From: a bacterium | Lineage (GTDB): Bacteria; Hinthialibacterota; Hinthialibacteria; Hinthialibacterales; Hinthialibacteraceae | NCBI GenBank assembly: GCA_963662285.2 | Contig: CAXXMV010000008.1 | Span: forward strand, 750,083 to 782,082 | Reading direction: 5' to 3' | Length of the DNA stretch: 32,000 nucleotides | Shown here: positions 1 to 21,855 of the stretch, one piece after another | Layout of the letters: every line of letters starts with the position of its first letter | Numbering within the stretch: position 1 is the first letter of the stretch | Notes under the pieces: generated by a model | Database searches by the model: none | What the model was told of the DNA's origin: nothing | The model's input: only the letters and a program-made list of their open reading frames with translations | Translations under genes and position numbers: made by a program

Positions 1-2971
1 ATTCACGTATAGCATAAGCGGAATGATAGGCTTCCTGAGCTTCATTCGTTTTACCTAATTCTATCAGTACATCTCCATATTGGATTAGGCCACGAGCATA
101 TCGATAATGCCATTGTTCATTTCCTCCATATATTTCTACACATTGCTTCTGAATGGCAAGAGCATTTTTATACACATTATCGATGTTTAATCGCAACGCC
201 TCAGATAAGTTTTTTTTCAGGAGTAGATCAGAATATTGAAAAAATATTGCTGAGAACTCAGATTTCCATTGGATATTATCCGGATCTTTTTCTATAAGGA
301 ATTTACATATCTCAATTGCGGTATCACATTCTTGAACAGCTTCATCGACATTATCTTGCGCTTCAAGCACCATACTTATTTTTCCGTGGATTATAGCCAG
401 AGTACGTTGCCATTCAGGATTGCCGGTATCTGTATTGGTTAAACGATCATGGATCGATTGGGCTTTACGATACGAATGCAATGCATCCGGTAAATTACCT
501 TGATCCATCAGCATCCCGCCAACCGTGATATGGCAGACTGACAGACCGTGTTGTTGGGAAAATTCACTAGAACCGCTCTCTATGATATTTTGCAAGATAT
601 CCCGTACGCACTGCATAAACCGTAAACGTAAAATTAATGGGGTATGGCTTTCTAGGGCATTTAAAAGAAATTCATGAAATTTCATGCAAATATTGATTCG
701 TTCGTACGGTTTTAATTGACTTTTATCCAATAGCGAAAGCACCCAGTCGAAACCAGGACCAAAATCCACTGTTTCCGAATCGGATTTTGGATTCGTTTCC
801 AACTGATTGCGAATGATATGCTCCGCCAAACTCCAGGTGGGACCCCAATGTTGATTTTTAGTAACCTCAAAAAGCAATCTCGCATAATATTTTGCCGCCA
901 TCAATTTAGCATCCGCACCAATGTAATGAAACATCAAGTTGCTGAATTGGATGAGATCGGTGGAATCCAAATCACTTAGATAATCGGCAATACCAAGATG
1001 AATACTTTTTTCTTTTTCAGTATCGCTTAGGTAACGGTGGTAAATTGCTTCCCGCATTTTTGTGTGAAAAAAATCCCATTGTCCCTGTTCGCCTTTTTGT
1101 ACAATATGAGATCGAAAAGTACGGCGTAAACTGGCAAAACGCAGATCATTCCATGGGCAATCGTCCGTAGAAATTTCTGGATACAATTGAGCCATAATGC
1201 GGGGCAAAAGAATGCGTATATCTTTTTCCCGCCACCCCTGACGGCTGACTGCGATCAGGTTCGCAAAACTTTCAGCCCATTCTTTGCCGTGGATTTCTTC
1301 CGCATGTTCTAACATAAAACCATACATGCCTTCCACATCGGGAGGAAAGGATTGGGTTGTATCGCACATCATGGCCAAAAGACGTTCTTCATCGGTTCCG
1401 GAATATTGTTGATGAGCACGTTTAAAATCATCCGCGTCGAGAAGATTCAACTCTTCAACAGCAAGTTCCAGCCACAGTGGAATTCCTAAAGATGGTTCGT
1501 CATCAGCATTTTGTTTGTCCAGTAAAATTTGTAAAACTTTTTGATTCAGGGTTCGATGGTATCGGGCGCATATTGTTTTTATTATGCTTTCCGCCTCATC
1601 TGTATTGAGCAATGACAATGGGAGCAAATCAATTCCTTTGCGCTGCTGCAAGGATTCCGATTCGGAACCAGGAATAGTGGTTGCAATAAGCCGCACATTG
1701 TCAGGAAGAATTCTTCGTAACCAAGTCATATACGAAGCGCGGGGAGAACGCTCGAATTGGTTTAGGGCATCGATGAGCAACACCACGCGGCGTTTTAACG
1801 AAGTCTGACCTAGAATTGTAAAAAACGTGTTTTCGATCTCCTCAGTCGAAAAACCTTGGCGTGTTTCTTGTTCTACTGGTCTTGATTCCAGATCATTCTG
1901 GTATTTTGTGCTGTGGGTATCTTTCTCTGCCAGAGGATTTTCGATTGAAAGGAATTGCGCCAATTCCTCCGTCCAGCGCAAGAGCATGGCATCAACTTGA
2001 CCGGCTTGCTGGCTAATGCCAGCAGCATGTGAAAGTAACAAGACATCTGATGATTCGAGCATACGATGCATATAGGCGAACAGGGCGCTTTTCCCTGAGC
2101 CTGTTCTTCCGGTGATACATATTCCCCATTTTTCATCTTTGAGTGCAATCGATGTGACATGTTTCATCAGGGTTTTGATGATATCGGCGCGTCCGATGAA
2201 GTCACGTCCGCGCTGTTCCACGAATGTATTCAGGATCGAACGTTCCTGTTCCTGCCAAGAGGAAACACTTTGATGGGCGAATTCCAACGTTTCTTCATTC
2301 AGTTCATTCCACAAGTCTTCAAGAACCTGGTTACCCAAGTCTTCAAGATTGTAAACTTGTATAGTTCCATCTGAATCGGATTTCCAATCAGCTCTGTAAG
2401 AACGAACACGGTCGGGCAATTCTTGTGTGATGCGTTCTTTAAGCGCTCTCAAGCGTTCGGCGCGTGCGGGTTCGCCGGCATGTTGTTCGCTGAAATGAGA
2501 AGATTGAGCTAGCGTCATCCGATCGTAGTCAAACGATTCTCTAAAATAAAAGAAACATCTCTTTTGCTGGCTAGGTGATTTCAATACGCCATATTCAATT
2601 TCAAGAGCCGTAACGCTTTTACCCTCCAAATCGCTTTCGAAACTGGCCTCTTGTGTGGCAGCCGCCATTCGTTCTTTTGGTGGAACCCATCCATAACGAT
2701 CACCGATGAGACCGATTAAAAACGGTCGGCTGCGCTGTATTTCATCAAGGCATACTTTAAGAACTAACATTTCCTTTTGGTGAGTTTCATCTATTGATAT
2801 GGTCTCAACTCCCCAACGCAAATCGATAGATTCTAGATGGTGACGTCTTTCACGTAGACGCTCTTCCAATTCAGGAAATACAACATTGCGTAAATAATCT
2901 CTTTCCGCTTGCATATCTATAAACGTACTTGTAATAAAAATTGGTCGTGTTTTCCAGTGAGCAGAAGTCAT
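1..2971 (-). CDS. DUF4062 (TIR-like) - STAND P-loop NTPase - TPR protein; C-terminus runs off the window start
   Basis: Missing from the ORF track because it is open to the window edge. My own minus-strand translation from the ATG at 2971 gives ~990 stop-free codons: MTSAHWKTRPIFITSTFIDMQAERDYL...IDLRWGV...CLDEIQRSRPFLIGLIGDRYGWVPP (DUF4062 signature), Walker A GRTGSGKS, Walker B VVLLIDALNQ, RLIATT, then TPR-like helical repeats to the edge. The small track ORFs at 1584-2374 are shadows inside it. Confidence 0.85.
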   Translation of the reverse strand, partial: MTSAHWKTRPIFITSTFIDMQAERDYLRNVVFPELEERLRERRHHLESIDLRWGVETISIDETHQKEMLVLKVCLDEIQRSRPFLIGLIGDRYGWVPPKERMAAATQEASFESDLEGKSVTALEIEYGVLKSPSQQKRCFFYFRESFDYDRMTLAQSSHFSEQHAGEPARAERLRALKERITQELPDRVRSYRADWKSDSDGTIQVYNLEDLGNQVLEDLWNELNEETLEFAHQSVSSWQEQERSILNTFVEQRGRDFIGRADIIKTLMKHVTSIALKDEKWGICITGRTGSGKSALFAYMHRMLESSDVLLLSHAAGISQQAGQVDAMLLRWTEELAQFLSIENPLAEKDTHSTKYQNDLESRPVEQETRQGFSTEEIENTFFTILGQTSLKRRVVLLIDALNQFERSPRASYMTWLRRILPDNVRLIATTIPGSESESLQQRKGIDLLPLSLLNTDEAESIIKTICARYHRTLNQKVLQILLDKQNADDEPSLGIPLWLELAVEELNLLDADDFKRAHQQYSGTDEERLLAMMCDTTQSFPPDVEGMYGFMLEHAEEIHGKEWAESFANLIAVSRQGWREKDIRILLPRIMAQLYPEISTDDCPWNDLRFASLRRTFRSHIVQKGEQGQWDFFHTKMREAIYHRYLSDTEKEKSIHLGIADYLSDLDSTDLIQFSNLMFHYIGADAKLMAAKYYARLLFEVTKNQHWGPTWSLAEHIIRNQLETNPKSDSETVDFGPGFDWVLSLLDKSQLKPYERINICMKFHEFLLNALESHTPLILRLRFMQCVRDILQNIIESGSSEFSQQHGLSVCHITVGGMLMDQGNLPDALHSYRKAQSIHDRLTNTDTGNPEWQRTLAIIHGKISMVLEAQDNVDEAVQECDTAIEICKFLIEKDPDNIQWKSEFSAIFFQYSDLLLKKNLSEALRLNIDNVYKNALAIQKQCVEIYGGNEQWHYRYARGLIQYGDVLIELGKTNEAQEAYHSAYAIRE

Positions 2972-3327
2972 TTTTGATATTATCCTTTACTCGAGTTACG
3001 CTAATAAATTGCATTCCAATAGAAAAAATTACATTCCTCTATGCGAAAGTGCATATTTTTCTCAAAGGTCAAAGAAAGTTGCTAACTCCTCCCGATCCCT
3101 GAAAAACGGATAAAGCCGTTTCGGGAATGTTGCGTCTCTAACTTACTTCCAACAAGCAGAATATTGATTCAGTACGTTTCCAAAAATCGTTGAAGTTTCT
3201 TGCCCCAATACGCATCTTTGTGACTGTAACTAATTAAATCTCAAGATATATGGTTATTTGTCAGCGTACCTTTTATGAGCATTTTCCTAAGCGGTGAAAA
3301 TTATATTTCAAGCTTATTAAGCAAACA

Positions 3328-5043
3328 CTACTTCACGATTTTCTTTCCTACTTTTTTCAGATAATCTGGAATATTCTTTACGGCATCCCGGTCATAGTCT
3401 TTTGTTTCTTCATCCAGGTCTTGCCACTCTTTCATATCTGGATGAGTTCGTTGTTTTATATCATTTGGCCCTTCAGTAAAATTTTCCAAGCGGTTAAAGG
3501 CAAGCCAGCGTTTGTGTTCCATTTCCGCAAGAATTTCTATATCTTCCTTAGAAAAATGATATTCTTCAACTTCGCTAGTTGCACATATGATTTGAAGACC
3601 AAGTGTGCGGAGTTTGATTCCAATGTGCAGCGCTTGAAGTCTGTTGGATTCGCGATAATACATATTTAACTGATTCCAGGATTTGTGAGACTCCGTCATC
3701 CCAAAGTCATTTTTTTTTGCTGCGGATTCTAAATAATTTTTATGAATGACTTTTGCCAGATGGTCTAGTTCATCTTCAACAATACATTGTAATGTTGCCG
3801 TTTCATTCAATGCACCAAAATAGTTAAAAGCCGCATCCCGAAATTCAGAGTTCATATAACAGGATTGATCAACATCGGCAGGAATTCTTACAAAGATGGG
3901 AATTTTATATTTTTTTAGTTGTTGAGAAATATTATGAGGATATAAGAATGACTTGCGCTTTTCATTGAAACAAAATACAGCGGATATTATCGCATTTTTA
4001 TTGTCCAGCCATTTCGTGAATTGTTTATCAAGGGTTTCCTTTTCAATGTCGGCATGAATAAATTCTATATCAGCCAGTGTATTGATTTGTGGATATTTTG
4101 CATATAATTCTTGCTTTCGGTTTTCCGAATCTAAATCGATAATAGATATTAATGTTTTTTGCTGATTTGCCATTTGATAGAGTTGAATGGCTTTAATAAC
4201 TAAAATTTCCCCCAAACATCCAAATCCTATAAGAATTAAATGGATAAAGTTATTGGAAGAAGGCATGATGGGGTTATAATCCAGCGGAGATTCATTTAAT
4301 AGTTTCCTAGCCATGATCTCATACAAGTTGATGATTTGAAACTCTAATCCTGAATGCGGATTCAAGAATAAGTCTTTATCTCGTAAAACAATACACATTT
4401 TTGAGTCAATTATATGAATATAGTTTCTAAGGATATTACATTTTTTTGATGCAACTGAATCTAACAAAGTCTGATGTACTTCATAAGCAAGTTCCATATT
4501 CTTAATATCTTCATCAAAAAAAGCAAATAAGTATGATGCTTTTTGAATACCTGCTTCAAGCAAAATAGAGTATTTTGTTGGTTCTGCTTGGATATGGTAC
4601 AAATCCTGATTGTTGAAATCATTTGAAACAATATCCAGACTAACATCAGCAAGCAGTACAACGTTTTTTTGCTTTTCTAACAAATCACAAATAAGATGTT
4701 TTGCCATTGGGGAATAGCCACAAACAATGTAGTGAGAATTAAAAAATCGAAGGATAAGTGATATATATTTTTTATAAAACAACGCGATGAATCCTAAAAC
4801 CAATGTAAATGAGGATGTAACGACTCCCAGCCATCGAGCCAATTCTACTTGCCATGTTTGAGGAAGATCATCATATTCAAGAATAAATAATTGAATAGTG
4901 CTGTAAAGACGATCCCAAAGACTCCATGCAGGATGTTCAAAGAAATAACCCCAAAGCCCCAAAAATATTGTCCAACAGATTAGACAGGACAAAATTGAAC
5001 CGCGATTGACTTCGATGTATTTGATACCTTTCAAAATATTCAT
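3328..5043 (-). CDS. Membrane protein: 2TM channel-like N-terminus, two Rossmann-like (TrkA-N/RCK-like) units, C-terminal RyR-domain module
   Basis: 571-aa ORF. Two hydrophobic helices (ILSCLICWTIFLGLWGYFF and WLGVVTSSFTLVLGFIALFY) flank LYSTIQLFILEYDD, a K-channel-like layout with no TVGYG filter. The first Rossmann unit is degenerate (IVCGYSPMA); the second has GxGxxG (LIGFGCLGE). The C-terminus carries a RyR signature: EMEHKRWLAFNRL...HPDMKEWQDLDEETKDYDRDAVKNIPDYLKKVG. An ATGA start/stop overlap links it to the upstream ORF. Confidence 0.8.
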   Translation of the reverse strand: MNILKGIKYIEVNRGSILSCLICWTIFLGLWGYFFEHPAWSLWDRLYSTIQLFILEYDDLPQTWQVELARWLGVVTSSFTLVLGFIALFYKKYISLILRFFNSHYIVCGYSPMAKHLICDLLEKQKNVVLLADVSLDIVSNDFNNQDLYHIQAEPTKYSILLEAGIQKASYLFAFFDEDIKNMELAYEVHQTLLDSVASKKCNILRNYIHIIDSKMCIVLRDKDLFLNPHSGLEFQIINLYEIMARKLLNESPLDYNPIMPSSNNFIHLILIGFGCLGEILVIKAIQLYQMANQQKTLISIIDLDSENRKQELYAKYPQINTLADIEFIHADIEKETLDKQFTKWLDNKNAIISAVFCFNEKRKSFLYPHNISQQLKKYKIPIFVRIPADVDQSCYMNSEFRDAAFNYFGALNETATLQCIVEDELDHLAKVIHKNYLESAAKKNDFGMTESHKSWNQLNMYYRESNRLQALHIGIKLRTLGLQIICATSEVEEYHFSKEDIEILAEMEHKRWLAFNRLENFTEGPNDIKQRTHPDMKEWQDLDEETKDYDRDAVKNIPDYLKKVGKKIVK

Positions 5044-6128
5044 AACTGTATCGACTTCGTTAGCTTTGGAATCATTTGATAATCTCTATCTTCAAAGGGT
5101 TTTTGAAATTCCAATAGCAATTCTTTCATTATGGGATGTATTGCGCATTGCTCCTTTACGTGGCAGTATTGGCAGGTAGTTTTTCCGGTAATTCCCAATT
5201 TCCCGACACCCGCCAACTCACCGGATCCCGAAGCTTTTATCACGGTTCCTTTCCCTTGAGGTGTTAACCAGTAAGCAAAATGACAATGCAGCGGCTCGAC
5301 TTCAGCCCAATCGCCTGCTTGTAGGGTTTTAACATTCCAAGTTAATGAGCCCCGCTGGTTCATTGGTTTAGACCAAATTTGCATTTCACCCGATAGAATC
5401 CCATAGATTTCAACAGCAGGAAGTCCGTGAACATGGACATCCTGTTTGTCTTTGGGCGAGAAAAAACTCCATGTAAATCCCAATCCTTGTTTTTGATAGG
5501 GTAAATAAGGATCGGCTACACGGAGATTAAAGGCTCGATTTCCTGCAGAAAGAATTTCATCTACGGTCTGGCTTTTAACAACTCGGACTCCGGTTTCTTG
5601 CAACGAAGCCCAATGACATGCCAATGCATCCATGGATGGAATTGTTGATGTTGTATCGATAACCTCAGAAAAATGACTTTGAACATAATTAGCTATCGTT
5701 CGGACATTTGGCTCTTTTGTATCTGCAAGAACTTCATTCAACAATTTCCAGGAAATAATATCTTTTTGCGTATTCAAGTTAGCCCAACCAGATTCAGTTA
5801 ATGAGATTGTCACTGGGTATAAATACCATTTTTTGTTTAGCCCCTCGTAGCGTGGACTATTATGATCGTTTAACAAAAGTGGCAATTCATCTTCTAAAAA
5901 GTAACTTCCTGGCTTCAGTCCAAGATCTTCCTTTAAGGGACGTACGAGTGCTTTATAAAGCGATTCCCCCTGACGTAACTTTGTTGAGGGAAATGTTGGA
6001 TGTCCTTGTTTTTCTATTAGCAGAAATTGTACAGGGTCATGAGAAGATAATTTTCTGCAAATCAAACAATATAATACATACGAAATGGACATATCTCTGA
6101 CATTTTCTCGATTTGATTTTTCACACAT
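5040..6128 (-). CDS. Degenerate Nudix-fold domain fused to a cupin-like domain and a C-terminal Cys/His cluster
   Basis: 362-aa ORF. It has a Nudix-like box, FPSTKLRQGESLYKALVRPLKEDLGL, where canonical RE is RP and EE is ED. Cupin-like motifs are HVHGLPAVEIYGILSG and GDWAEVEPLHCH. CQYCHVKEQCAIH lies near the C-terminus. The 4-nt ATGA overlap with the 3328-5043 ORF implies an operon. Confidence 0.65.
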   Translation of the reverse strand: MCEKSNRENVRDMSISYVLYCLICRKLSSHDPVQFLLIEKQGHPTFPSTKLRQGESLYKALVRPLKEDLGLKPGSYFLEDELPLLLNDHNSPRYEGLNKKWYLYPVTISLTESGWANLNTQKDIISWKLLNEVLADTKEPNVRTIANYVQSHFSEVIDTTSTIPSMDALACHWASLQETGVRVVKSQTVDEILSAGNRAFNLRVADPYLPYQKQGLGFTWSFFSPKDKQDVHVHGLPAVEIYGILSGEMQIWSKPMNQRGSLTWNVKTLQAGDWAEVEPLHCHFAYWLTPQGKGTVIKASGSGELAGVGKLGITGKTTCQYCHVKEQCAIHPIMKELLLEFQKPFEDRDYQMIPKLTKSIQL

Positions 6129-6396
6129 ATAGAATACCTATTTGGGCAAGTATTTCCTGGTTCAACGTGAACTGGAGAATCACTCGTTCTGAGTTAGCAC
6201 TTCTTTGTATAATAGTTTGAGTTTTTTAGGCAAGGGGAAACTATCAATCCAATGAATATCTTTTAATGGGAGGCGTAGAAGGAGTGGCCTTCCACACCCC
6301 ACTCATCGTCTTGATGAGTTCCATCCGGCTATCCCTGGCGAGTTGCGCTCCCACAGAGCCCGCGTCCGTTTCACCGGATGCTATCATCTTCTTACA

Positions 6397-6822
6397 TCAC
6401 GTCAGCCGTGTCAAGAGTTTGCACGGCCTGCAGGTTGGCCTTTCTCCTTCCCGCGCTGCGTGAAGTTTACGATCCCATTCAGCGAAGATCGTGGGTCCGC
6501 GTCCGTCAGAGTTCCTTAAGACTTTTTTTACCTGAATGTGCTTCTCCATGAGTTCATCGAGTACTTCGTTCTTGCGTTTGAGTTTTTTTCCCAGCGCTGC
6601 GATTTTTCTCTCAGCGGTGGCAGACACGTCACTTGGGTTGGATTAGAAGGCGGCGGCTCCATTTTCAAAGAATTGCTTCTGTCAGCGGTAGAACATGGAC
6701 GGTTGCAGCCCATACGTCTCACAGTTATCCGATACCTCCTGCCTGTCCACCAAATGGCGCTTCAAAATCCCGACTTTTCCCTGCGGGGTGCAATGCTTGA
6801 GTTTCTTTATGATCTCCTCCAT
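6397..6822 (-). pseudogene. IS3-family-like transposase OrfA remnant with two in-frame stops; the DDE OrfB is missing
   Basis: Minus-strand reading from the ATG at 6822: MEEIIKKLKHCTPQGKVGILKRHLVDRQEVSDNCETYGLQPSMFYR*QKQFFENGAAAF*SNPSDVSATAERKIAALGKKLKRKNEVLDELMEKHIQVKKVL. This is an HTH plus leucine-zipper OrfA layout. There is a TGA at 6682-6684 (where Trp is expected in FYRWQK) and a TAA at 6643-6645. An A7 run (gtaaaaaaagtc) at the zipper end resembles an IS3 slippery site. No integrase-core ORF follows. Confidence 0.55.
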
Positions 6823-7012
6823 TCGAATATGCTATGCTAACTCAAATGAAGTATTTCTCCATTTCCGTTTGAAACGGAGCACGGGAAGGAAGATTGACAT
6901 GTCACTACTTTGTATGATAAAATCAGGTGTGATATATTTCAGAATAATTCTGGATTAAATGGAAAATCTTGGACATATTGACTAATTTTTTATATCAATT
7001 ATAGAGGAATCC

Positions 7013-11638: not shown

Positions 11639-11716
11639 AACAGGACGAAACTACTGGAACTGTTGAGCAGTACAGACGACGCGTTCTTGACAAACAGAGC
11701 ATTAATCGAGGTTTTT

Positions 11717-14700
11717 ATGCTAATCGATTTTCTGACTTATCAACGAGAGACCCAAAAGCAACCGGCTCCGTCTAAGCCACTCGATTGGACTTGCGGGGAA
11801 TTGCTTTGTGATGTCAGCTATCTTCAATACACGGGGCCGTCGGAATGGGAGTGCACTGGTTTATTCGGCTCTTCACATACATGCAAAGATATACACCGGA
11901 ATCGCCGTTTTCTCTGCTTGGTTCCACGGGAAGAAATCTATCGCAAAGGTTGGGTGCGTAAGCGATTTGCGTTTGAGTACAAACGGCTTCTCACCGCCTC
12001 TCCCTCCCCCTTTCTGATGATTCCCGTAGGATGGATCGAAAGGGTTGATTATGTCATGTGCATCTTGGAATGGAATGACAGGGTTCCGCTGCAAACCTTG
12101 TTAGAATCATCACAATCGGCGCCATCCTCTTCTCCACTTCCCTTTGCCGATCCCCAAGTGCGAGCGCGCGATGCACTCGAATTGTTTTTCCAAGTCGCCA
12201 CGGGAATGAAACAGTTGCATGACAAAACAGGGTTGATTCATCACAATCTTCATCCCGGAACCCTCTTTTGGAGTCAAGAGCGTCAGGCGTTTCAAATCAG
12301 CGGTTTTCTACTTTCGCATAGTCTGTATTGGACTCGGGAGGATGAACCTGAGTTTGAAACGACATTTCCGGACAACAATGTATCTTCAGAAGATAGTATC
12401 TGCGCATTTCAATTTCCCGAATCCGTCCGTCCCTATCTTCCTCCAGATGTTCTCGATAATCCCCTGCATGCGGAACCCTGCGACGATATATATTCTCTCG
12501 GCATGATCGTATATCAAATTCTGCATAATTTTAACGATGAAGTCGTCAAGCGGTTTCCAACGGATGGTTTTGAAACGCCCGAGTGTGGAAGTGATGGGCT
12601 TCTTACCTTACTGCGCCGATGCCTGGCGACGCAGAGGGATGATCGATGCATTTCGTGGGACGCTCTTCTCGACGATGTACGTAATATGTTGTCTGAAAAT
12701 AAGAGTCGATCCCTGCAAAAACCCCAACTCATTCTTTCATGCGACGACTGTGTGAATCTATCCTGGGCGCACATCGACATGAGTAAATACAGTCGCGCCG
12801 GGGAATGGGCCAACCAAGCCCTCGACATCGAGTCGAATAATTCTTTCGCTCAAATAGCCAAGATGATCACTCTTGGGAAAATCGGTCGCTTGGATGAAGC
12901 CTTTGAAATTGGATCATCCTTACTTCGTAGAGAGCCGGAAAACGCCGAAGCGCATAATTATATGGGTTATTTGTATTACCAAAAAGGAGATTTCAAAACC
13001 AGTCTTGAACATTTTGAATCCAGTTTGCGTTACGATTCCAACCTAGCCTGCAACTATAACAACCTCACTGTACTCTATCTTGTTCACGAACGCCTGAAAG
13101 AAGCGCGGGACTGCTTGATGCGGGGCTTGGAACGCTTTCCCTTCGATCCCGATCTATTGGTTTCATGGGTTAGTGTATCCGAATCGCTAGGAGACCTCCC
13201 GAGCGCATTGGCCCATCTCGAAGAAAAACTCGCGGACGATTGGGATGGCTCCATTCACAATGCGTATGGTATGGTGCTGGAAAAAAAAGGCCGCCTCGAT
13301 GACGGAATAATCCGGCTAGAGGCCTTTCTTTCGACCAGGCCGAGCGCCCATCTCGCTTGGAACCGGTTGGGAATTCTTTCAGAAAACGCCGGACATTTGG
13401 AAAAAAGTCTGGAAAGTTTTCAAAAGGCCATCCGTCTCAAACCACATGACGAAAACTATGTGGGCAATTGCCTACGGATTTTAAACTCATTGGGTTGTTT
13501 GTCTGAGGGAATTCAACTTGGAGAACAATGGTTGTCCTGTTATTATCCCGCAATGTCTGTTAGCAGCCTATTGGGAGTGCTATTGACTAATGCGGATGAG
13601 ATAGAACGCGCGGTAGAGCCTCTTCAGAACGCTCAACGCATTGCCCCTTGCGATGAGACATTGGCGGGCAATCTGGTTCACAGTCTGCGCATTGCCGACC
13701 AGGTAAATCAAGCCATTGAATTCGGCGCCGAATGGTCAGTAACTCATAAAGGTGGATCGTATTTTTGGAATCAATTGGGGAACGCCTATTTTGGCTTGGA
13801 GCGTTTTGCCGAAGCAATTCCCTGTTATCAGAAAGCTCTGGAATTCGAACCGGATGATGCAGAAATCGCATCCAATTTATTAAATGCCTATTTTAAAATA
13901 AACGATTTTTCCGCTTGTATGCAATTCGCCGAAGCATGGCTTGCAGACCATCAGGGCAACGAGAATTTTCATACTTACTTAAGCATCTCCTTCATCAACA
14001 CGAATCAGATGGAAAAAGCCATCTCTACCTTAAAAACCGCTATCAGCAAGCAGCCTGAATTAGCAAATTCACTGAAAGAAGTGATTGCCAAATTAACTCA
14101 GAGTGGGCAGGAACAACGGGCGATTGAATTCGGCGAACTCTGGCTCCTACACAATCCTCCGACGCTGGATGTTTTGAATCAAATCGGAATCGTCCATTAC
14201 GAAAACAAACGCTTTGAAGAGGCGACCGCCTGTTTTCGAAACGCACTCGAACTGGAACCAAGTAATAAAACTGTCGCATTGAATATAATGAATTCCTACG
14301 ATAACTTGAATCAGTATCAGCGGTGCATCGAATTTGGAGAAAATTGGCTCCAACACAATCCTCCGACGCTGGATGTTTTGAATCTTATCGGAATCGTCCA
14401 TTACAAAAACAAACGCTTTGAAGAAGCGACCGCCTGTTTCCAAAACGCGCTCGAACTGGAACCAAGTAATAAAACTGTCGCATTGAATATAATGAATTCC
14501 TACGATAACTTGAATCAGTATCAGCGGTGCATCGAATTTGGAGAAAATTGGCTCCAACACAATCCTCCGACGCTGGATGTTTTGAATCTTATCGGAATCG
14601 TCCATTACAAAAACAAACGCTTTGAAGAAGCGACCGCCTGTTTCCAAAACGCGCTCGAACTGGAACCAAGTAATAAAACTGTCGCATTGAATATAATGAA

Positions 14701-15760
14701 TTCCTACGATAACTTGAATCAGTATCAGCGGTGCATCGAATTTGGAGAAGATTGGCTTAATCGGCACTCGCCAGATGATACAATATTCGGACATCTTGTC
14801 GATGCGTACACTCATTTAGGAAAGTATGATAAAGCAGAACAAGCGTTAGTAAAAGCACCGAAAGAATATCAATATTTGAGATGTATACTAAACGCTTACT
14901 ATCAATCCAAACAATTTGACAAAGCCATCGATTGTGCAGAACAATGGAAAGATCAATACAATCTTGAGCCGGAGTTATGGAATTCCTTGGGACAAATCCA
15001 TTATGATAAAAAACAATATTCGGAAGCCTTAGAATGCTATGAAGAAGCATCGCGATTGTCCCCTGAAAATCTAGATTACCTTAATAACTCTGCTTTGGCC
15101 TTGTCCTCATTAAAAAAACACGATGAAGCGATTGCCCGAATGGGCTATGTACTTGAGCAACAGCCTAGTACTTTACTTTATGCACAAAATTACTTTACAT
15201 GCCTTAAAGACGCCAACCACAAAGAAAAAGCTGTTGAATTTGCGAAAGGGTGGATGGAAGCAAATACTGTGGATGAAATTTTATTGAATTCTGTAGGACT
15301 AACGTTAGATGATTTAAAGAAAGATAAAGATGCAATTGAATGCTACCAGAAGGCTCACGAACTGAATCCTCAAAATGCCGGGTATTTAAATAATATGGGA
15401 ATGAGTTTCAAAGCACTCGGCCAATTCGATCAAGCCATTACTTTAACGAAGCAAGCCATAGAACTGGAGCCGAAAAATATTGTTATTATTGTGAATCATC
15501 TTATCTGTTTGAAAAGTGCAGACCGTCTGGATGAAGCGATCCAAATCGGCAATGCTTGGATTCAAGAACATGGCGAAAAACCAATAGTTTTAAATCAATT
15601 GGCGTTGATTCACGAACAAAAATTTGATTTTGAAAATGCGCTGGTCTGTTATGATTCCACACAAGAGAAAGAGAAATACCTTGCCGCATTAATAGATTAC
15701 GGCCGGTATGAAGCCCTGAATCAAGCCTTGGAATGGTATGACTGGATGGAGACGGCGTGA
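11717..15760 (+). CDS. Protein-kinase-fold domain (predicted pseudokinase) fused to a long TPR array
   Basis: The track ORF starts at a TTG at 11663. I prefer the ATG at 11717, preceded by GAGG plus a 5-nt spacer. Kinase-fold landmarks are LELFFQVATGMKQLHDKTGLIHHNLHPGTLFW (HRD-loop equivalent), FQISGFLLSH (DFG equivalent), PYLPPDVL and DIYSLGMIVYQIL (subdomain IX). TPR repeats run from about residue 370 to the end. Confidence 0.85.
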   Translation: MLIDFLTYQRETQKQPAPSKPLDWTCGELLCDVSYLQYTGPSEWECTGLFGSSHTCKDIHRNRRFLCLVPREEIYRKGWVRKRFAFEYKRLLTASPSPFLMIPVGWIERVDYVMCILEWNDRVPLQTLLESSQSAPSSSPLPFADPQVRARDALELFFQVATGMKQLHDKTGLIHHNLHPGTLFWSQERQAFQISGFLLSHSLYWTREDEPEFETTFPDNNVSSEDSICAFQFPESVRPYLPPDVLDNPLHAEPCDDIYSLGMIVYQILHNFNDEVVKRFPTDGFETPECGSDGLLTLLRRCLATQRDDRCISWDALLDDVRNMLSENKSRSLQKPQLILSCDDCVNLSWAHIDMSKYSRAGEWANQALDIESNNSFAQIAKMITLGKIGRLDEAFEIGSSLLRREPENAEAHNYMGYLYYQKGDFKTSLEHFESSLRYDSNLACNYNNLTVLYLVHERLKEARDCLMRGLERFPFDPDLLVSWVSVSESLGDLPSALAHLEEKLADDWDGSIHNAYGMVLEKKGRLDDGIIRLEAFLSTRPSAHLAWNRLGILSENAGHLEKSLESFQKAIRLKPHDENYVGNCLRILNSLGCLSEGIQLGEQWLSCYYPAMSVSSLLGVLLTNADEIERAVEPLQNAQRIAPCDETLAGNLVHSLRIADQVNQAIEFGAEWSVTHKGGSYFWNQLGNAYFGLERFAEAIPCYQKALEFEPDDAEIASNLLNAYFKINDFSACMQFAEAWLADHQGNENFHTYLSISFINTNQMEKAISTLKTAISKQPELANSLKEVIAKLTQSGQEQRAIEFGELWLLHNPPTLDVLNQIGIVHYENKRFEEATACFRNALELEPSNKTVALNIMNSYDNLNQYQRCIEFGENWLQHNPPTLDVLNLIGIVHYKNKRFEEATACFQNALELEPSNKTVALNIMNSYDNLNQYQRCIEFGENWLQHNPPTLDVLNLIGIVHYKNKRFEEATACFQNALELEPSNKTVALNIMNSYDNLNQYQRCIEFGEDWLNRHSPDDTIFGHLVDAYTHLGKYDKAEQALVKAPKEYQYLRCILNAYYQSKQFDKAIDCAEQWKDQYNLEPELWNSLGQIHYDKKQYSEALECYEEASRLSPENLDYLNNSALALSSLKKHDEAIARMGYVLEQQPSTLLYAQNYFTCLKDANHKEKAVEFAKGWMEANTVDEILLNSVGLTLDDLKKDKDAIECYQKAHELNPQNAGYLNNMGMSFKALGQFDQAITLTKQAIELEPKNIVIIVNHLICLKSADRLDEAIQIGNAWIQEHGEKPIVLNQLALIHEQKFDFENALVCYDSTQEKEKYLAALIDYGRYEALNQALEWYDWMETA
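14120..14760 (+). repeat. In-frame 204-bp (68-aa, two-TPR) tandem repeat, ~3.1 copies
   Basis: Copies start at 14120, 14324, 14528 and 14732 (partial). Read base by base, 14324-14527 and 14528-14731 are identical. Perfect 204-bp periodicity holds over 14246-14749. Copy 1 has scattered substitutions (by eye roughly 90 percent identical). Confidence 0.95.
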
Positions 15761-15826
15761 TGAAAATCAAATTTGTTGGAGAGGAAGGTTTAGAATCGAA
15801 ATTCTTTTTAAGGATCTTCAGAAAAC

Positions 15827-18304
15827 ATGAACCTACACTGGTATGACGAACAAATTCAACTTTACAAAAAACTTACTTCCCTCTATGAAAAAATGGCGGC
15901 GGGATTAAAACGGCGTCTGCAAATCGCCATGTCCGAGATGGGGATGGACGCTATCGTTCAGGCGCGTGCAAAAACCATCTCCAGCTATGCAGAAAAGATC
16001 GTCCGCAAACAGAGCAAATATGCCGATCCTATCCGTCTGATCACCGACCTCTGCGGACTGCGCATCATCGTCGAACGATTGGATGAAGTTCGCCGATTGT
16101 GCGATTTCATTGAAACCGAGTTTGAGATTGATGAAGGAAACAGTGAAGATTGCCTCGAACGTCTGAAGATCAATGAGTTCGGCTACTTATCCAATCATTA
16201 CATCGTGATGTTGACTTCCCCCGAAAAAGCTGAAGCGTTCGGCATTACGACGAGCGATCTCGATATCATAAAAACAGTCAAGGGGCTGGATTTTCCGATC
16301 AAGGCCGAGATCCAAGTACGGACGCTACTGCAACATGCATGGGCGGTTTTCATACATAAGCATCTCTATAAAAGGAAATGGAACCTACCGCGGGCGTGGC
16401 TCCGCGAAACATCCCGTATCTCGGCTATGTTGGAGGATGCGGACGATTCGTTTTCCCGACTGGTCGAGGAAATTGACGTCTATAAGACACAGTACGGCGC
16501 CTACATGACGCCAGATCAGATGAACAGTGAAATCGAGATGCTGCAATTGATTCAACGTTACGATCCCGGTAATGAATCTCTTGCCCGTGAAATTGCTCGA
16601 ATCGCGAAGGAAAGCGGACGCTGGTCATTGGTGGTGGAAACATTATTGCCGTTTCGCGAATCCGCCGATCCCGACTCTCTTCTCGATCTCGGCAACGCCA
16701 TTTTGCACATGAAAGATCCGCTCCAAGTCGATGAAGGCCACCGCCTGATTGAGCGCGCCATTGAATTGTCTGCTAAAAACGCACCAGCCTATATCACCTT
16801 AGCCCAATTGTGCAGAGAAAGCGAACAGACAAAACGTTTGCGCTATTACGAAATGGCTTTTCAGGCCGATCCAAACGAACCCATGGCATTTTGTGGTTTT
16901 CTGCTAAACAAAATCATAGCAGAGCGAAATCGAGATTTTCTAGCATTGCTTCGCCCTCTTATAGAAAATGCCGTCAAACGTTGTAATGATCGAATACGCG
17001 CCGGTGTCGATGCTTCCTCTTCGTATTGTCATATCGGAATATTGCAGATGGCGTTGGGTCGAATGGAATCGAGCGCATCCGCCTTTGCCAAAGCGGCGAC
17101 ATTAAAACCGGTTCCTCGCGTATTTTATGAATATCGAGATTCGGTGCGTTTATTAATAAATCAGGTTAACAATCAATGGCCCGAACTACTCATACTCGAC
17201 CAACTATTCGATCTCTTCAACAAAGCAGAGGCGCTTCAAAGCGGTTCAATCTCTGACATTTCAAACGACTTGCAGACGACGAGCCTGATACGGATTCCCG
17301 TTGTCATTGTGGCAGGCAGCTGCAATGAAGATTCGTCTCACCTCATGGAGGCGCATCGAAAATTGATGACAGAATCGTTTCAAGGATTTCAAGGAACAAT
17401 TGTATCAGGCGGAACCCGATCAGGCGTCAGTGGTCTGGTGGGAGATATGTCGTTGGATATGGGCAACGCCGTGAAACTGGGATATATACCCAAAGACATC
17501 GAATCAAATCAACTGCATCCTGCTTTCCTCATCCGGAGAACGAAGGGATCAACCTTTTCGACGCTGGAACCAATCCAGTATTGGATAGATTTGCTACAAT
17601 CTGGGATTTGTCCATTGCAAGTAAAATTGATCGGCTTCGGTGGTGGGGTGCTTTCAGCGTTTGAATATCGCTTGGCGCTGGCAATGGGCGCCTGGGTGGG
17701 CATATTGCCTGATAGCAGGCGTGAAGCCGCCCGCCTGCTGGACGACGATGATTGGAATGGCTCACCGAACCTTCTTCGCATTCCGTTGGATGCTGGGATT
17801 TTACGTTCCTTCATTCACCCTGCGCCGTCGGCGGCGTTTGCGTCGGATGATCGCGAGCGAATGGCACGGGGCATTCATGGCGAATATCGAAAAAAACATG
17901 TGAAGCGATTGCTGCAATACGAGCCTTCCGCCGTCGAGTGGGAATATCTGAGAGACGATTTGAAAGAGTCTAATCGGCGACAGGCCGATCACTATTGCAT
18001 GACGTTGCAATCGGCCAGTCTCAACATTCGGAAGGCGCTGAGGAGGAGTGAAATACAAATCATTGAATTCACTGATCGTGAAATAGAAGTCATGGCCGAA
18101 AGAGAACATTCGCGTTGGACCGTGGAGCGCTTGATGGATGGATGGCGTCTGGGAGAGCAGAACACCGACCGAAAAGAAAGCCCCTATCTGGTCTCCTGGA
18201 TGGACCTTTCCGACGATATTAAGGACTACGACCGAAACGCAGTCAAGGACATTCCACGGATTTTAGAAGAATACGGTTATGAAGTGTATCGTGAAACCAT
18301 CTGA
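15827..18304 (+). CDS. RelA/SpoT-type (RSH, synthetase-only) nucleotide pyrophosphokinase - TPR-like - SLOG/LOG-like Rossmannoid - RyR module fusion protein
   Basis: 825-aa ORF. All RSH synthetase motifs are present: RAKTISSYAEK (15965-15997), ITDLCGLRIIV, FGYLSNHYIV, EIQVRTLLQHAWA (16307-16345), HKHLYK. There is no HD hydrolase domain. Residues ~230-480 form a helical TPR-like region. The SLOG/LOG-like region (~17290-17720) reads PVVIVAGS...IVSGGTRSGVSGLVGD...IGFGGGVLSAFEYRLALAMGAWVGIL. The C-terminal RyR signature is EREHSRWTVERLMDGWRLG...SPYLVSWMDLSDDIKDYDRNAVKDIPRILEEYGYEV. Confidence 0.85.
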   Translation: MNLHWYDEQIQLYKKLTSLYEKMAAGLKRRLQIAMSEMGMDAIVQARAKTISSYAEKIVRKQSKYADPIRLITDLCGLRIIVERLDEVRRLCDFIETEFEIDEGNSEDCLERLKINEFGYLSNHYIVMLTSPEKAEAFGITTSDLDIIKTVKGLDFPIKAEIQVRTLLQHAWAVFIHKHLYKRKWNLPRAWLRETSRISAMLEDADDSFSRLVEEIDVYKTQYGAYMTPDQMNSEIEMLQLIQRYDPGNESLAREIARIAKESGRWSLVVETLLPFRESADPDSLLDLGNAILHMKDPLQVDEGHRLIERAIELSAKNAPAYITLAQLCRESEQTKRLRYYEMAFQADPNEPMAFCGFLLNKIIAERNRDFLALLRPLIENAVKRCNDRIRAGVDASSSYCHIGILQMALGRMESSASAFAKAATLKPVPRVFYEYRDSVRLLINQVNNQWPELLILDQLFDLFNKAEALQSGSISDISNDLQTTSLIRIPVVIVAGSCNEDSSHLMEAHRKLMTESFQGFQGTIVSGGTRSGVSGLVGDMSLDMGNAVKLGYIPKDIESNQLHPAFLIRRTKGSTFSTLEPIQYWIDLLQSGICPLQVKLIGFGGGVLSAFEYRLALAMGAWVGILPDSRREAARLLDDDDWNGSPNLLRIPLDAGILRSFIHPAPSAAFASDDRERMARGIHGEYRKKHVKRLLQYEPSAVEWEYLRDDLKESNRRQADHYCMTLQSASLNIRKALRRSEIQIIEFTDREIEVMAEREHSRWTVERLMDGWRLGEQNTDRKESPYLVSWMDLSDDIKDYDRNAVKDIPRILEEYGYEVYRETI

Positions 18305-18710
18305 ACCTTGGGCGTCACCCATTCCAACGGCACGAGTCATCATCGTCAATGAAGAGGGCGCTGTATTGCTATTGAAACGTGGTGAGGGCGACTATGGTGC
18401 CGGTCTGTGGTGCTTACCCGGTGGGAAGGTGGATTATGGAGAATGCCTCAAGGAGGCGGCCCGTCGTGAACTGCATGAAGAAACATCGATCCACCCAGAC
18501 CATCTACGTTTTTTATTCTATCAGGATGGATTACCCAAATTTGATCAGGATATGCATTGCATCGAACTTTTTTTTCAATGCGTATACTCCGGTCCCGTCT
18601 CCGTCAATTGCGAATCCATCGATTTTGCCTGGGTTAAAGAGAAAGGAATACAAGATTATCCTATGGCTTTCAATCACGACCGAGCATTGAGCCGATATTG
18701 GGAAACATGA
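18279..18710 (+). CDS. Nudix hydrolase (small, single domain, near-canonical Nudix box)
   Basis: 143-aa ORF. The Nudix box GGKVDYGECLKEAARRELHEETSI (18420-18491) fits GX5EX7REUXEEXGU except for the final G, which is S. The start overlaps the upstream RSH gene by 26 nt. Confidence 0.85.
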   Translation: MKCIVKPSEPWASPIPTARVIIVNEEGAVLLLKRGEGDYGAGLWCLPGGKVDYGECLKEAARRELHEETSIHPDHLRFLFYQDGLPKFDQDMHCIELFFQCVYSGPVSVNCESIDFAWVKEKGIQDYPMAFNHDRALSRYWET

Positions 18711-19422: not shown

Positions 19423-20214
19423 CTATGTGTTTTCTTCATCATGCGGTGTTGTTTCCTGTCCAGATTTAGTTTCCATCTTTTGCCGCGTCCGGTATGAGTT
19501 GCCTTTGGTGGTGAGAATATGAGCGTGGTGCACGAGGCGGTCCAGCAAGGCGGTGGTTAATTTCTCGCTGCCGAAAACCTGCACCCATTCACTGAAATCC
19601 AAGTTGGTCGTCACAATGGTCGAGCGGCGTTCGTATCGATCCGCCAAAAGATTAAATAGCAACTCGCCTTCGTGTTTGTTGAAAGGAGTGAATCCCAGTT
19701 CATCCACAATCAAAAGAGAAACGCTCAAATAGCGTTGATGCAAACGTCCCAGCGTCCGGTCATCTTTGGCTTCCACCAAATTCCTGACCAGTTCCGATGC
19801 TCTCACAAAAACCACCCTGCATCGACGCCGCGCCGCTTCCATGCCCAGCGCAATGGCCAAGTGTGATTTGCCCGTTCCGATTGGCCCCGCAATAATCACG
19901 TCATCCGCGCGATCAATAAATTCACCACTGGCCAGTTCGAGCACTTTCGGTTTGGATACCCCGCGCAATTTCTGCCAATCAATTTGATCAAGCGTTTTTT
20001 GATCGGGGAAACGGGCTTCCCGAATACGGCGCAAGGCGCTTTTCTCGCGTCGTTCGCGCACTTCCGACTCAAGCAACTGCTTGAGAAATTCTTCATAAGG
20101 CCAATCCCCATCCTGCGCATGACGCGCTAATTCCGGGTAAAGCCGCACCATGGCGCTGAGTTTAAGTTCTTTCCCATATTCTTCAATCACGGCTTTCAAG
20201 GCGCTATTATTCAT
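19423..20214 (-). CDS. istB: IS21 helper ATPase IstB
   Basis: Walker A is IIAGPIGTGKSHLAIALG and Walker B is LLIVDELGF; the AAA+ IstB-like sequence runs throughout. I prefer the ATG at 20214 (MNNSALKAV...) over the track start at 20241. Confidence 0.9.
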   Translation of the reverse strand: MNNSALKAVIEEYGKELKLSAMVRLYPELARHAQDGDWPYEEFLKQLLESEVRERREKSALRRIREARFPDQKTLDQIDWQKLRGVSKPKVLELASGEFIDRADDVIIAGPIGTGKSHLAIALGMEAARRRCRVVFVRASELVRNLVEAKDDRTLGRLHQRYLSVSLLIVDELGFTPFNKHEGELLFNLLADRYERRSTIVTTNLDFSEWVQVFGSEKLTTALLDRLVHHAHILTTKGNSYRTRQKMETKSGQETTPHDEENT

Positions 20215-21115
20215 GATCGCCTCCTCGCAACAAAAAATCATAATCGGCGGCGGTCGCTTTTTCGATCACATATTCTGCCAGTTCATCCGGCACGGGAATA
20301 GTTAGAGGCGCACTTTGATCAATGATATCCATTCGCCCCAACAGACCGGTTCGATCTGCGTCCAGTATGTCCTTAACAGCCTGACTGACCTCTTCCAAAG
20401 ATGAGTCCAGGATCGCTCTAAGCACTTTGGCCATTATGCGGGCGGCGTTAATTCCACCGTGTGATTTTTCCAGCAAGTTCCAGAAACGCTGAAATGGTTC
20501 GCCTAGTTCCGACATCAACTCCGGCGAAAGTTGACGGACTGCTTGCGGCTTTTTGGCGAATTCACGCAGGTAATGAACATAGCGAATCTGCCGCCCCGCT
20601 TGTTTTTTCTTTTCATAAATAACGGTGATCCCCTGGCAAACAATCCGTATTTCTTCCACGCCGACATAGGCCATCGCTTCCAGGCAAGCCCATTCCGAGG
20701 GCAGCGAATACTCGGTTCCCTCAATGATGGCGGTCGATTTACGGTTGATTGAAATGGGGAGCAAACGGCTTGGATCAAACGGATAAGGCGGCAGGGAATG
20801 TAAATAGCGCTGCTCTTCTTTGATCTTTTCCGCAACCGGTTTCCCGGCGCGATCCTTTTTGGATTGACGAAGTTTCTCAATGTCATGCAAGAGGGCTTGC
20901 GATAATTGGGCCAGCGAATCGCCGCGCGGAACCGGCGTGAGATGCTGCAAACGAATACCTTTACCCCGGCTTTCCACTCCGCCTTTGTCGTGTCCAACGC
21001 CAACCCGCGCAAAGCAGGGTTCGAATAAATAATGGCTCACCAAGGCGTGGAAGCGTCCGCTTAATTCACGGGCGGGATACATGATGCGTTTTACCGCCGC
21101 CGCCAGATCAACCAA
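20207..21115 (-). pseudogene. istA: IS21 transposase IstA, C-terminal ~300 aa only
   Basis: The track ORF begins at a TTG inside the end of the catalytic core (GHDKGGVESRGKGIR). The expected N-terminal HTH and first DDE residues are missing, and upstream sequence is an unrelated phage-like ORF on the other strand. Confidence 0.75.
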
Positions 21116-21138
21116 TCACAAGACAAAGGAGCATCGAC

Positions 21139-21537: not shown

Positions 21538-21542
21538 GAGGA

Positions 21543-21770: not shown

Positions 21771-21855
21771 TTCCGTACTGGATGGCCTTCGGTGAGGTAA
21801 TCGCTTCGCCGGAGCCGATGCGAAACAGAATTCTGATCGATCATGGAATAGACAG

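Follow-up and report, generated by a model that had tools for sequence, protein, structure and literature searches.

A composite set of STAND, RyR-module and Nudix genes at a divergent bacterial locus: a candidate TIR-signalling conflict system

Gene content of the locus

A 32,000-nucleotide stretch of bacterial DNA (assembly GCA_963662285.2, contig CAXXMV010000008.1, positions 750,083 to 782,082; hereafter the window) carries two divergent operons arranged around the remnant of an IS3-family insertion sequence (IS). The operons encode STAND proteins with TIR or TIR-like DUF4062 domains, two proteins with tandem RyR modules and two Nudix-type proteins, and the same families recur together in other genomes. 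The set is a candidate composite anti-phage conflict system of the TIR-signalling, Thoeris-like kind, a reading drawn from sequence to which we give about an even chance.

The genes were mapped from a listing of open reading frames (ORFs) and a six-frame translation and then searched against Pfam, and this reproduced all seven genes and every domain call of an initial annotation made from the letters of the window. Reading outward from the junction, the minus strand encodes a 362-amino-acid (aa) protein with a degenerate Nudix domain and a cupin (NudCup, 6128..5040), a predicted ion channel of 571 aa with two transmembrane segments (2TM), tandem RCK (TrkA_N) and tandem RyR modules (5043..3328), and a DUF4062-NACHT/AAA_16 STAND protein with TPR repeats (2971..<1; >990 aa, its C-terminus lying past the left window edge). 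The plus strand encodes a Zn-ribbon, TIR_2, NACHT STAND and TPR protein (7013..11638, 1541 aa), a pseudokinase with a long TPR array (11663..15760, 1365 aa), a RelA_SpoT (RSH) protein with TPR, SLOG and RyR modules (15827..18304, 825 aa) and a canonical MutT-type Nudix hydrolase (18279..18710, 143 aa). The junction between the arms (6129-7012, 884 base pairs (bp)) holds one minus-strand frame with two in-frame stops, which was translated in a single frame. This frame (6822..6247) is a pseudogene that matches the N-terminus (OrfA region) of IS3-family transposases (NCBIfam NF033516 transpos_IS3, E 1.1e-7, profile positions 3-87 of 369), and the IS remnant of the initial annotation is thereby recovered. 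When its two fragments were searched separately against Pfam, no match was obtained. PADLOC recognised no known system in the window and returned weak or partial matches only (PDC-S33, PDC-S07, the kinase part of MkoA and TIR models).

The predicted RCK channel

Pfam assigns TrkA_N (1.6e-7) and RyR (1.6e-6) to the channel protein. An AlphaFold2 (AF2) model built on a 32-member alignment (predicted local distance difference test (pLDDT) 86.6; predicted template modelling score (pTM) 0.83) has TM1, a short pore-helix-like helix, a loop, TM2, two Rossmann lobes and a tandem, R12-like RyR pair. Foldseek places the GsuK K+ channel first (4gx0/4gx5, 1.8e-9), followed by the TrkA ring, MthK, Slo1/Slo2 and CASTOR/DMI1. 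The family profile searched against PDB sequences matches GsuK over the pore and RCK1 (1e-14) and the repeats of animal RyR1-3 (1e-26 to 1e-28), and searches of the N-terminal segments against Pfam gave nothing relevant. The protein, which had been described as 2TM-Rossmann-RyR, is predicted by model and profile to be a GsuK/MthK-like RCK channel homologue with a non-canonical filter.

The family is large. An exhaustive HMMER search yielded 873 cluster representatives (50% identity) at E<1e-30, and a word-indexed homology search with the channel protein returned one distant match only. The GxGxxG loop of RCK1 has the family consensus CGLGRKG and reads CGYSPMA in the window protein, which is the most divergent member of its family. 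The window copy may be a separate acquisition, or its function may be relaxed or shifted.

The RSH protein and its Nudix partner

The RSH protein matches the Pfam families RelA_SpoT (1.5e-15) and RyR (3e-14), and its family profile matches RelQ/RelP/YjbM (1e-16 to 3e-20) and RyR repeats (5e-32) in the PDB. The synthetase residues R47, K49, K57, D74, R79, E161, Q163 and R165 are invariant in 28 homologues. Judged by its motifs and matches, the RSH domain is synthetase-only, has all synthetase motifs intact and is closest to the small alarmone synthetases (SAS). Pfam makes no SLOG call for the RSH protein of the window; in the corresponding region, 21 of the 28 relatives in the alignment match PF18171 (LSDAT_prok). 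The RSH-TPR-SLOG-RyR architecture is kept in >120 homologues at 30-40% identity, some of which carry a Nudix domain fused C-terminally. The sole PADLOC match of the protein is a weak one to the candidate PDC-S33. A shorter relative without RyR (P0111, 668 aa) occurs in a metagenome-assembled genome of Heimdallarchaeota.

The last 26 bp of the RSH gene lie within the Nudix gene downstream. The Nudix product matches Pfam NUDIX (3.4e-21), its best NCBIfam match is MutT-type, and its Nudix box (GKVDYGECLKEAARRELHEETSI) keeps every catalytic Glu and Arg, the only departure from GX5EX7REUXEEXGU being a final G->S. Elsewhere the two are fused, as RSH-...-RyR-Nudix and as Nudix-RSH, so that Nudix can stand at either end. 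Their union in one polypeptide argues against a classical labile-antitoxin arrangement. Nudix pyrophosphatases are among the enzymes that degrade ppGpp (Ooga 2009, as cited in PMC3153485).

Archaea also encode the RSH-TPR-SLOG-RyR protein with an adjacent Nudix gene, as seen in Bathyarchaeia, Methanoregulaceae, Methanobacterium and Halobacteriota (related loci L009, L010, L013, L014, L016, L027 and L043). In four loci (L031:7804-9537, L045:7834-9534, L065:2818-4611, L073:3637-5025) a gene for a sigma-54-dependent activator (Sigma54_activat, 1e-58) precedes RSH by two to three genes, which hints at transcriptional control of some RSH operons. A cluster of 7 loci has, near Nudix-RSH, a ~575-aa protein with a SLATT C-terminus (a 2TM pore-forming effector) and a weak SLOG-like N-terminus; its gene lies two genes upstream of RSH in L053, L054 and L030 and directly before Nudix-RSH in L053 (7706-9451) and L054 (7743-9461).

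Ligand residues of the RyR modules

The RyR-domain proteins of phages known as RyDEP bind 2'/3'cADPR (cADPR, cyclic ADP-ribose) via His75, Trp78, His100 and Asp117, as studied in viral members only, and act as anti-Thoeris glycosidases and sponges (PMC13232231). Positions of the RyDEP ligand site are retained in RyR repeat 2 of both the channel (H510/W513/H534/D551) and the RSH protein (H761/W764/D802) of the window. Across the channel family, conservation in this repeat is 100% for the His, 91% for the Trp and 91% for the Asp; in the RSH family the His is invariant and the Trp and Asp are at least 90% conserved. Because it is fused to effector domains, the RyR module is predicted to work as a receptor, unlike an inhibitor of the RyDEP kind. 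Searches of IMG/VR found no full-length members of either family, only SAS-domain-only relatives of the RSH protein and no relatives of the channel. The genes are therefore cellular and not viral, and a viral origin was rejected.

The two RyR modules of the window are 32% identical. In a neighbour-joining tree of RyR modules (n=188), the channel (87/87), RSH (70/73) and NTPase (14/14; described below) families form separate clades, and each window module falls inside the clade of its own family. The initial annotation had raised the question of whether the two arms are paralogous. By this tree the modules are ancient paralogues, and not parts of a duplicated arm.

The STAND proteins and the pseudokinase

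Both STAND proteins of the window have the architecture of STAND antiviral NTPases, that is, an N-terminal effector domain, a NACHT P-loop NTPase and C-terminal repeats. The plus-arm protein matches TIR_2 (3e-15), NPHP3_N (2.6e-25) and TPR_NPHP3 (1e-37) in Pfam and has the Walker A motif GKAGIGKS; its C-terminal ~580 aa are without domain assignment. The motif YCLNEIAYA contains the TIR catalytic Glu, which 19 of 19 partner TIRs share. One homologue of this TIR-STAND is encoded directly downstream of RSH in an archaeal locus (L013; 37% identity over 620 aa), and another lies inside the L161 operon described below. Unusual fusions among the TIR partners include HSP70-TIR, TIR-phosphofructokinase and TIR-WD40 proteins (L135:6631-9909; L162:7902-9971; L003:6636-9491). 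The variety of these fusions suggests very diverse trigger-sensing modules.

The minus-arm STAND protein matches DUF4062 (7e-11), NPHP3_N, AAA_16 and TPR in Pfam and has the Walker A motif GRTGSGKS. Glu82 of its DUF4062 domain, in the motif VCLDEIQRS, is invariant. A protein 47% identical to it is encoded next to RSH and Nudix genes in L076. Searched against the PDB, the DUF4062 profile matches a structure of human TEP1 (11gz, 5e-28) and 10wc, an entry named 'KpSwz TIR/DUF4062'. An hhalign comparison of small alignments of the two domains, DUF4062 and TIR, gave no signal (probability 0.8%). DUF4062 is described in 2026 preprints as a TIR-like NADase that converts NAD+ to ADP-ribose (ADPR) and defends bacteria against phage. 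The initial annotation had also called the domain TIR-like, a status that rests on these PDB entry names and preprints.

The kinase-like protein encoded between the TIR-STAND and RSH genes matches Pfam Pkinase under the cut-off (4.4e-6), many TPR families and, over its kinase-like part only, the PADLOC model MkoA (1e-18). Because HRD is replaced by HHN and DFG by SGF, the kinase-like domain reads as a pseudokinase. The kinase part of this gene has a homologue in 0 of 158 related loci, and the gene was rejected as a member of the system, being specific to this locus.

The Nudix-cupin protein

The NudCup gene overlaps the channel gene by 4 bp, which suggests that the two are translationally coupled. 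Its product falls under the Pfam NUDIX cut-off of 21.1 bits (19.1 bits, E 1.4e-3). The Nudix box (TKLRQGESLYKALVRPLKEDLGL; T-x5-E-x7-R-P-L-x-E-D-x-G-L) is degenerate, and the replacements G->T, RE->RP and EE->ED are fixed across the family. The N-terminal lobe of an AF2 model (pLDDT ~90) matches RppH, NrtR, AraR and Ap4A hydrolases in Foldseek (E ~1e-6 over ~150-160 residues). As modelled, then, the N-terminal domain has a Nudix fold and, like those of NrtR and AraR, probably binds a ligand or has an altered chemistry. The C-terminal half has an invariant cupin metal site (H232/H234/E240/H283) and an invariant Cys cluster (C319, C322 and C328; C-x2-C...C). The putative cupin lobe is identified by this motif and by names in the source databases, its AF2 lobe being of low confidence, and the family profile found nothing significant among PDB sequences.

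NudCup has 334 homologues, which are 52-62% identical and in some cases are joined to a canonical Nudix domain. Conservation of the family across phyla far exceeds that of the neighbouring genes (30-40%). The 1.64-Mb contig that holds the window also encodes a paralogue (P0380, 54% identical). Five contexts of NudCup were found (L065, L161, L165, L162 and L164), and each has RSH and Nudix genes or TIR/DUF4062-STAND genes; the channel gene is present in L161 only. NudCup has the look of an enzyme, as yet uncharacterised, whose substrate is a small molecule related to TIR/ADPR.

Recurrence of the gene set in other genomes

One genome per GTDB species was scanned for relatives of the RSH protein. 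From 500 relatives the best 80 loci were taken, and the 78 with an intact RSH gene were searched with iterated hidden Markov models built from the window domains. They represent archaea as well as many bacterial phyla. Nudix accompanies RSH in 42 of the 78, in 36 of them at the adjacent gene and in one as a fusion. Full-length channel-RyR homologues occur in 19 of 78, mostly on the same strand and within three genes of RSH; DUF4062(-STAND) proteins occur in 20, TIR proteins in 20 and either of these in 37. Partner genes near RSH are mostly on the RSH strand. The initial annotation had argued that the neighbourhood is not a matter of chance, and the recurrence of the same families bears this out. 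Within three genes of RSH, as compared with genes farther away in the same loci, enrichment was found for Nudix (9.8% vs 0.2%, p=6e-14), for the channel-RyR protein (3.9% vs 0.8%, p=1e-3) and for TIR (4.4% vs 1.2%, p=2e-3), and the values for DUF4062 were 3.2% vs 1.6% (p=0.08). Among the 50 RSH neighbourhoods that are complete for three genes on either side, 25 contain Nudix, 18 contain TIR or DUF4062, 9 contain the channel, and 12 contain the triad of RSH with Nudix and TIR/DUF4062.

A second set of 74 metagenome loci was anchored on the channel and found with a narrow family alignment. TIR accounts for 10% of genes within three of the channel vs 0.6% far from it (p=3e-5) and is usually the next gene downstream. 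Several of these TIRs are small and ThsB-like (Pfam TIR_2/ThsB_TIR), and others are fused to WD40, TPR or HSP70. RSH-SLOG-RyR is found in 7 of the 74 loci and Nudix in 3. Because channel-anchored loci so rarely hold Nudix, Nudix belongs with RSH and not with RyR proteins generally, and TIR is the partner common to both RyR families. A third RyR family, an AAA/nSTAND-like NTPase of ~850-950 aa with a C-terminal tandem RyR, adjoins the channel gene in ~15 loci (L083:11339-14176, L092:6619-9261 and L138:4168-6771; also L100, L105, L111, L127, L130, L144, L148, L150 and L156, and L012, L025, L078 and L080).

The families of both window arms are found together in single operons elsewhere. L161 has, on one strand, Nudix, NudCup, TIR, TIR-STAND-WD40, TrkA_N-RyR (channel) and RelA_SpoT-TPR-RyR genes, whose products are 53% (Nudix), 61% (NudCup), 32% (TIR-STAND), 28% (channel) and 34% (RSH) identical to those of the window. 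The genes are those for Nudix, RSH-LSDAT-RyR, NudCup and TPR proteins in L165; DUF4062-STAND, RSH, Nudix and NudCup in L065; and RSH, Nudix, an RCK protein and DUF4062-STAND in L076. The only partners of NudCup in L164 and L162 are genes for TIR and DUF4062-NACHT proteins. The channel, TIR and (Nudix-)RSH genes form compact cassettes in L099, L107 and L130, and Rosetta-stone fusions include RSH-...-RyR-Nudix, Nudix-RSH and Nudix-NudCup.

These neighbourhoods bear on the proposal of the initial annotation that the locus holds two mirror-image variants of one STAND, RyR and Nudix system, each arm acting alone. Each arm of the window does contain one member of each class, as that proposal had it, and Nudix together with TIR/DUF4062 occurs within 10 kb in 22 of 78 RSH loci. 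The proposal is nonetheless highly improbable, and the gene neighbourhoods largely refute it. Single operons of six loci (L161, L165, L065, L076, L004 and L011) intermingle the families of the two arms. These loci belong to unrelated genomes and are without any IS; the juxtaposition is thus not an artefact of the IS insertion, and the neighbourhood is a selected one. The rarity of Nudix beside the channel, the separate, old family clades of the RyR modules, the placement of NudCup beside RSH and Nudix or TIR genes (with the channel in one of five contexts) and the presence of the triad in only 12 of 50 RSH neighbourhoods all speak against the proposal, in which STAND, RyR and Nudix form the unit. 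Because the minus-arm families elsewhere share single-strand operons with the plus-arm RSH-RyR and Nudix genes, the window contains not two variants but one composite gene set, which is split here into divergent halves. The divergent layout is most simply explained as a rearrangement of an ancestrally colinear operon, and the rearrangement may have been IS-mediated.

A proposed signalling pathway and its alternatives

The biochemical steps, the identity of the signal and the role in defence that we infer for the composite set are as follows. The two STAND NTPases (TIR-NACHT-TPR and DUF4062-NACHT-TPR) would sense an invader via their repeats, oligomerise and switch on their NAD+-cleaving domains. 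Two effectors would capture the product, which could be ADPR, a cADPR isomer or a related ADPR derivative, through the tandem RyR (R12-type) module and perhaps through SLOG as well. One effector, the GsuK/MthK-like RCK channel with its non-K+-type filter, would open and collapse ion gradients. The other, the RSH protein, would make a toxic alarmone or pyrophosphorylate tRNA and so cause growth arrest. The MutT-type Nudix would hydrolyse the RSH product (or ADPR), which would set a threshold or reset the system, and the Nudix-cupin protein may bind or modify an ADPR-type nucleotide. A Thoeris-like model is the most economical reading of the RyR residues, the linkage to TIR, the SLOG domain, the NADase STANDs, the intact synthetase and the MutT-type Nudix. 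The embedding of the STANDs in operons with RyR/SLOG effectors and Nudix suggests that the products of the STAND NADases are read out downstream, beyond NAD+ depletion. Further neighbours in the related loci, the SLOG-SLATT and NTPase-RyR proteins, are typical of nucleotide-signalling conflict systems.

The main alternative is that the island is an assembly of independent modules. RSH-SLOG-RyR and Nudix would make up a closed toxSAS-like pair, of the toxin/antidote or abortive-infection kind, that responds to a metabolite such as ADPR or products of NAD+ breakdown, whatever their source. The TIR- and DUF4062-STANDs would be stand-alone NAD+ depleters like Avs and Swarozyc, the channel would be separate, and co-location would reflect clustering in islands. 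This explanation is possible, if rather doubtful. TIR, DUF4062, channel and Nudix are all absent from 17 of the 50 (34%) complete RSH neighbourhoods, and RSH-SLOG-RyR can therefore exist without a dedicated NADase nearby; Nudix is present in 25 of these neighbourhoods and an NADase gene in only 18, and the Nudix fusions link Nudix to RSH only. A 2026 preprint reports that DUF4062 proteins defend alone by NAD+ depletion, and toxSAS toxins with dedicated neutralisers are established. However, independent modules do not predict same-strand, tight operons of small ThsB-like TIRs and both RyR effectors (L099, L107, L130 and L161), nor do they predict TIR as the immediate neighbour of the channel. 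They give no reason for three unrelated scaffolds (channel, RSH and NTPase) with RyR of the cADPR-binding type beside TIR genes. Moreover, the RSH protein is an 825-aa multi-sensor protein, unlike the single-domain toxSAS toxins.

Several points weigh against the Thoeris-like model itself. A TIR that forms part of a STAND/Avs protein is usually taken to be an effector that depletes NAD+ and not a source of signal, and a systematic survey of Thoeris excluded such TIRs accordingly. The enrichment of DUF4062 near RSH is weak (p=0.08), and a third of the complete RSH neighbourhoods have no partner family. The 'far' control genes come from the same islands as the near genes and not from a genome-wide background, and ORFs in the related loci were called by a crude in-house method. 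In the RyR modules, the equivalent of RyDEP His100 is variable (H/S/T/N) and repeat 1 is degenerate. To our knowledge, host RyR-domain proteins are known from sequence alone. The N-terminus of the channel, searched by itself against the PDB, has a K+ channel pore as its best match, which is not significant (E 0.77); the proposed pore homology draws on the fold and on the long GsuK profile match. The non-significant pore alignment sets 'LYLTLQLF-LESGA' of the channel family opposite 'FYFCIVTFSTVGYGD'. Since LESGA (ILEYDD in the window copy) aligns at the position of the selectivity filter, where TVGYG is absent, the filter appears not to be of the K+ type. Finally, the window copy of the channel is without the GxGxxG motif of RCK1, and its gene has an unusually low guanine-plus-cytosine content (0.33-0.36 vs 0.41-0.48 around, window 3001-5000).

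The island context of the window consists of the IS3 remnant together with IS21 and integrase genes. IS21 IstB, an IstA fragment and a tyrosine integrase lie on the minus strand at 19423..23090 (Pfam IstB_IS21 4e-76 and Phage_integrase 7e-25; NCBIfam transpos_IS21 2e-16). The region beyond (23404-31458) encodes a GFO/IDH/MocA oxidoreductase, DUF6807, a xylose-isomerase-like TIM barrel, AraC and MarR regulators and a glycine-betaine-type ABC transporter. Because the genes beyond the integrase have no link to defence, the right limit of the island is at ~19.4-23.1 kb.

This context is relevant to the suggestion that the genes form a non-defence circuit in which NAD+/ADPR status, read via RyR/SLOG, controls ion homeostasis and the stringent response, with an alarmone and the channel as outputs, and in which carriage on mobile DNA is accidental. 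Housekeeping regulation is the classical role of RCK channels and RSH enzymes, GsuK binds NAD+ and ADP according to PDB entry titles, the family is very widespread and includes archaea, and sigma-54 activators lie upstream in four loci. Such a circuit is nevertheless quite unlikely. The distribution is patchy with 30-40% identity between members, the partners are variable (TIR fused to WD40, TPR, HSP70 or phosphofructokinase; SLATT; STANDs), and IS and integrase genes flank the set. These are hallmarks of conflict systems, and they argue against core physiology.

Comparison with known systems

The closest comparison is with Thoeris, of which types I-XI are described. Type I consists of the TIR protein ThsB and the SIR2-SLOG protein ThsA, and type X of a TIR protein and the ion-channel effector ThsK. 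The systematic survey that added types V-XI and proposed 29 putative types left out STAND-embedded TIRs, and its text and four supplementary files make no mention of RyR, RelA/SpoT, Nudix or TrkA. As in Thoeris, a TIR gene with the catalytic Glu adjoins effector genes that bear a predicted nucleotide-sensor domain, in an island context. The RSH family has a SLOG sensor as does ThsA, a membrane-channel effector is found in type X (ThsK being likened to the present channel by description only), and small ThsB-like TIRs (Pfam ThsB_TIR) are seen in the related loci only. In contrast to Thoeris, sensing is predicted to fall to a tandem RyR (R12) module, and an RCK channel and an RSH synthetase serve as effectors. 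Often one operon encodes two effectors together with Nudix accessories, and in the window TIR and DUF4062 are carried by NACHT-TPR STANDs and not by a dedicated ThsB-like producer.

The STAND proteins resemble Avs/bNACHT proteins and the Swarozyc STAND/DUF4062 NADases in having an N-terminal TIR or DUF4062 domain, a NACHT NTPase and C-terminal repeats. They differ from Avs and Swarozyc in that those of the window and related loci sit in operons with RyR/SLOG effectors and Nudix genes. The DUF4062-NACHT-repeat architecture of the window protein is common to human TEP1, NWD1 and NPHP3.

Like the toxSAS toxins FaRel, FaRel2, PhRel and CapRel, the RSH domain looks synthetase-only with intact motifs, may have a role in abortive infection, and has a small adjacent gene that could neutralise its product. 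It is, however, part of a four-module protein with TPR, SLOG and RyR and not a small single-domain toxin, and its partner is a MutT-type Nudix and not a small alarmone hydrolase (SAH) or a protein antitoxin. RyDEP belongs to the same family (PF02026) as the RyR modules and has the same ligand-contacting His, Trp and Asp found here in repeat 2, and its homodimer is mimicked by the tandem repeat. RyDEP is a small, viral, stand-alone anti-defence protein, whereas the modules of the window are cellular and fused to effectors. With GsuK, MthK and Slo channels the predicted channel shares TM1, a pore helix, TM2 and tandem RCK lobes, GsuK (deposited with NAD+ and ADP bound, by its PDB entry titles) being the best structural and sequence match. 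Unlike GsuK and MthK, the present channel family has no TVGYG filter, has an extra C-terminal RyR pair and adjoins TIR genes.

TIR/NADase signalling in defence is itself known. What appears to be new, judging from the gene families, is the use of RyR-module receptors with channel and RSH effectors within it. Searches of the literature for RyR with SLOG, Nudix or STAND and for RyR with TrkA found no host RyR effectors, in agreement with the view of the initial annotation that the system family is undescribed; Burroughs et al. 2015 (SLOG/LSDAT), outside the literature covered, may list RelA/SpoT-SLOG architectures. If the proposed pathway is correct, hosts would use the RyR domain, so far seen in phage counter-defence only (preprint, May 2026), as an immune receptor for the products of TIR. 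TIR signalling would gain two types of effector, an RCK channel and an RSH alarmone synthetase, and through the latter one nucleotide signal would trigger the synthesis of another, which is rare. The pay-off would be broad, since the families are large (500 RSH-SLOG-RyR relatives and 873 channel representatives) and extend over bacteria and archaea. The Nudix-cupin protein is an additional, uncharacterised and highly conserved TIR-associated family.

The animal counterparts are TRPM2, which combines an LSDAT SLOG domain, a channel and a NUDT9H Nudix domain, and the ryanodine receptors. LSDAT-type SLOG, Nudix, RyR repeats and a channel are likewise found in the one prokaryotic set, beside TIR NADases, but there the modules are distributed over several proteins and the pore is of the 2TM RCK type, not of the TRP or RyR type. 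In animal physiology, the mode of action of cADPR at ryanodine receptors has yet to be settled. The prokaryotic set, if it works as proposed, would provide a testable precedent for cADPR acting on RyR-domain channels and for ADPR acting on SLOG/Nudix channels such as TRPM2. An evolutionary link to TRPM2 and the ryanodine receptors may exist. Tentatively, the effectors can be pictured as a cADPR/ADPR-gated RCK cation channel and a ligand-gated alarmone synthetase that serve TIR signalling through RyR (R12) receptors, the latter in a two-tier cascade from an NAD+-derived signal to an alarmone, with the set as an evolutionary reservoir for the regulatory modules of animal RyR and TRPM2 and for the DUF4062-NACHT architecture of TEP1 and NWD1. 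The recurring bacterial and archaeal gene set points to a putative immune pathway built from the same parts as the animal RyR and TRPM2 channels.

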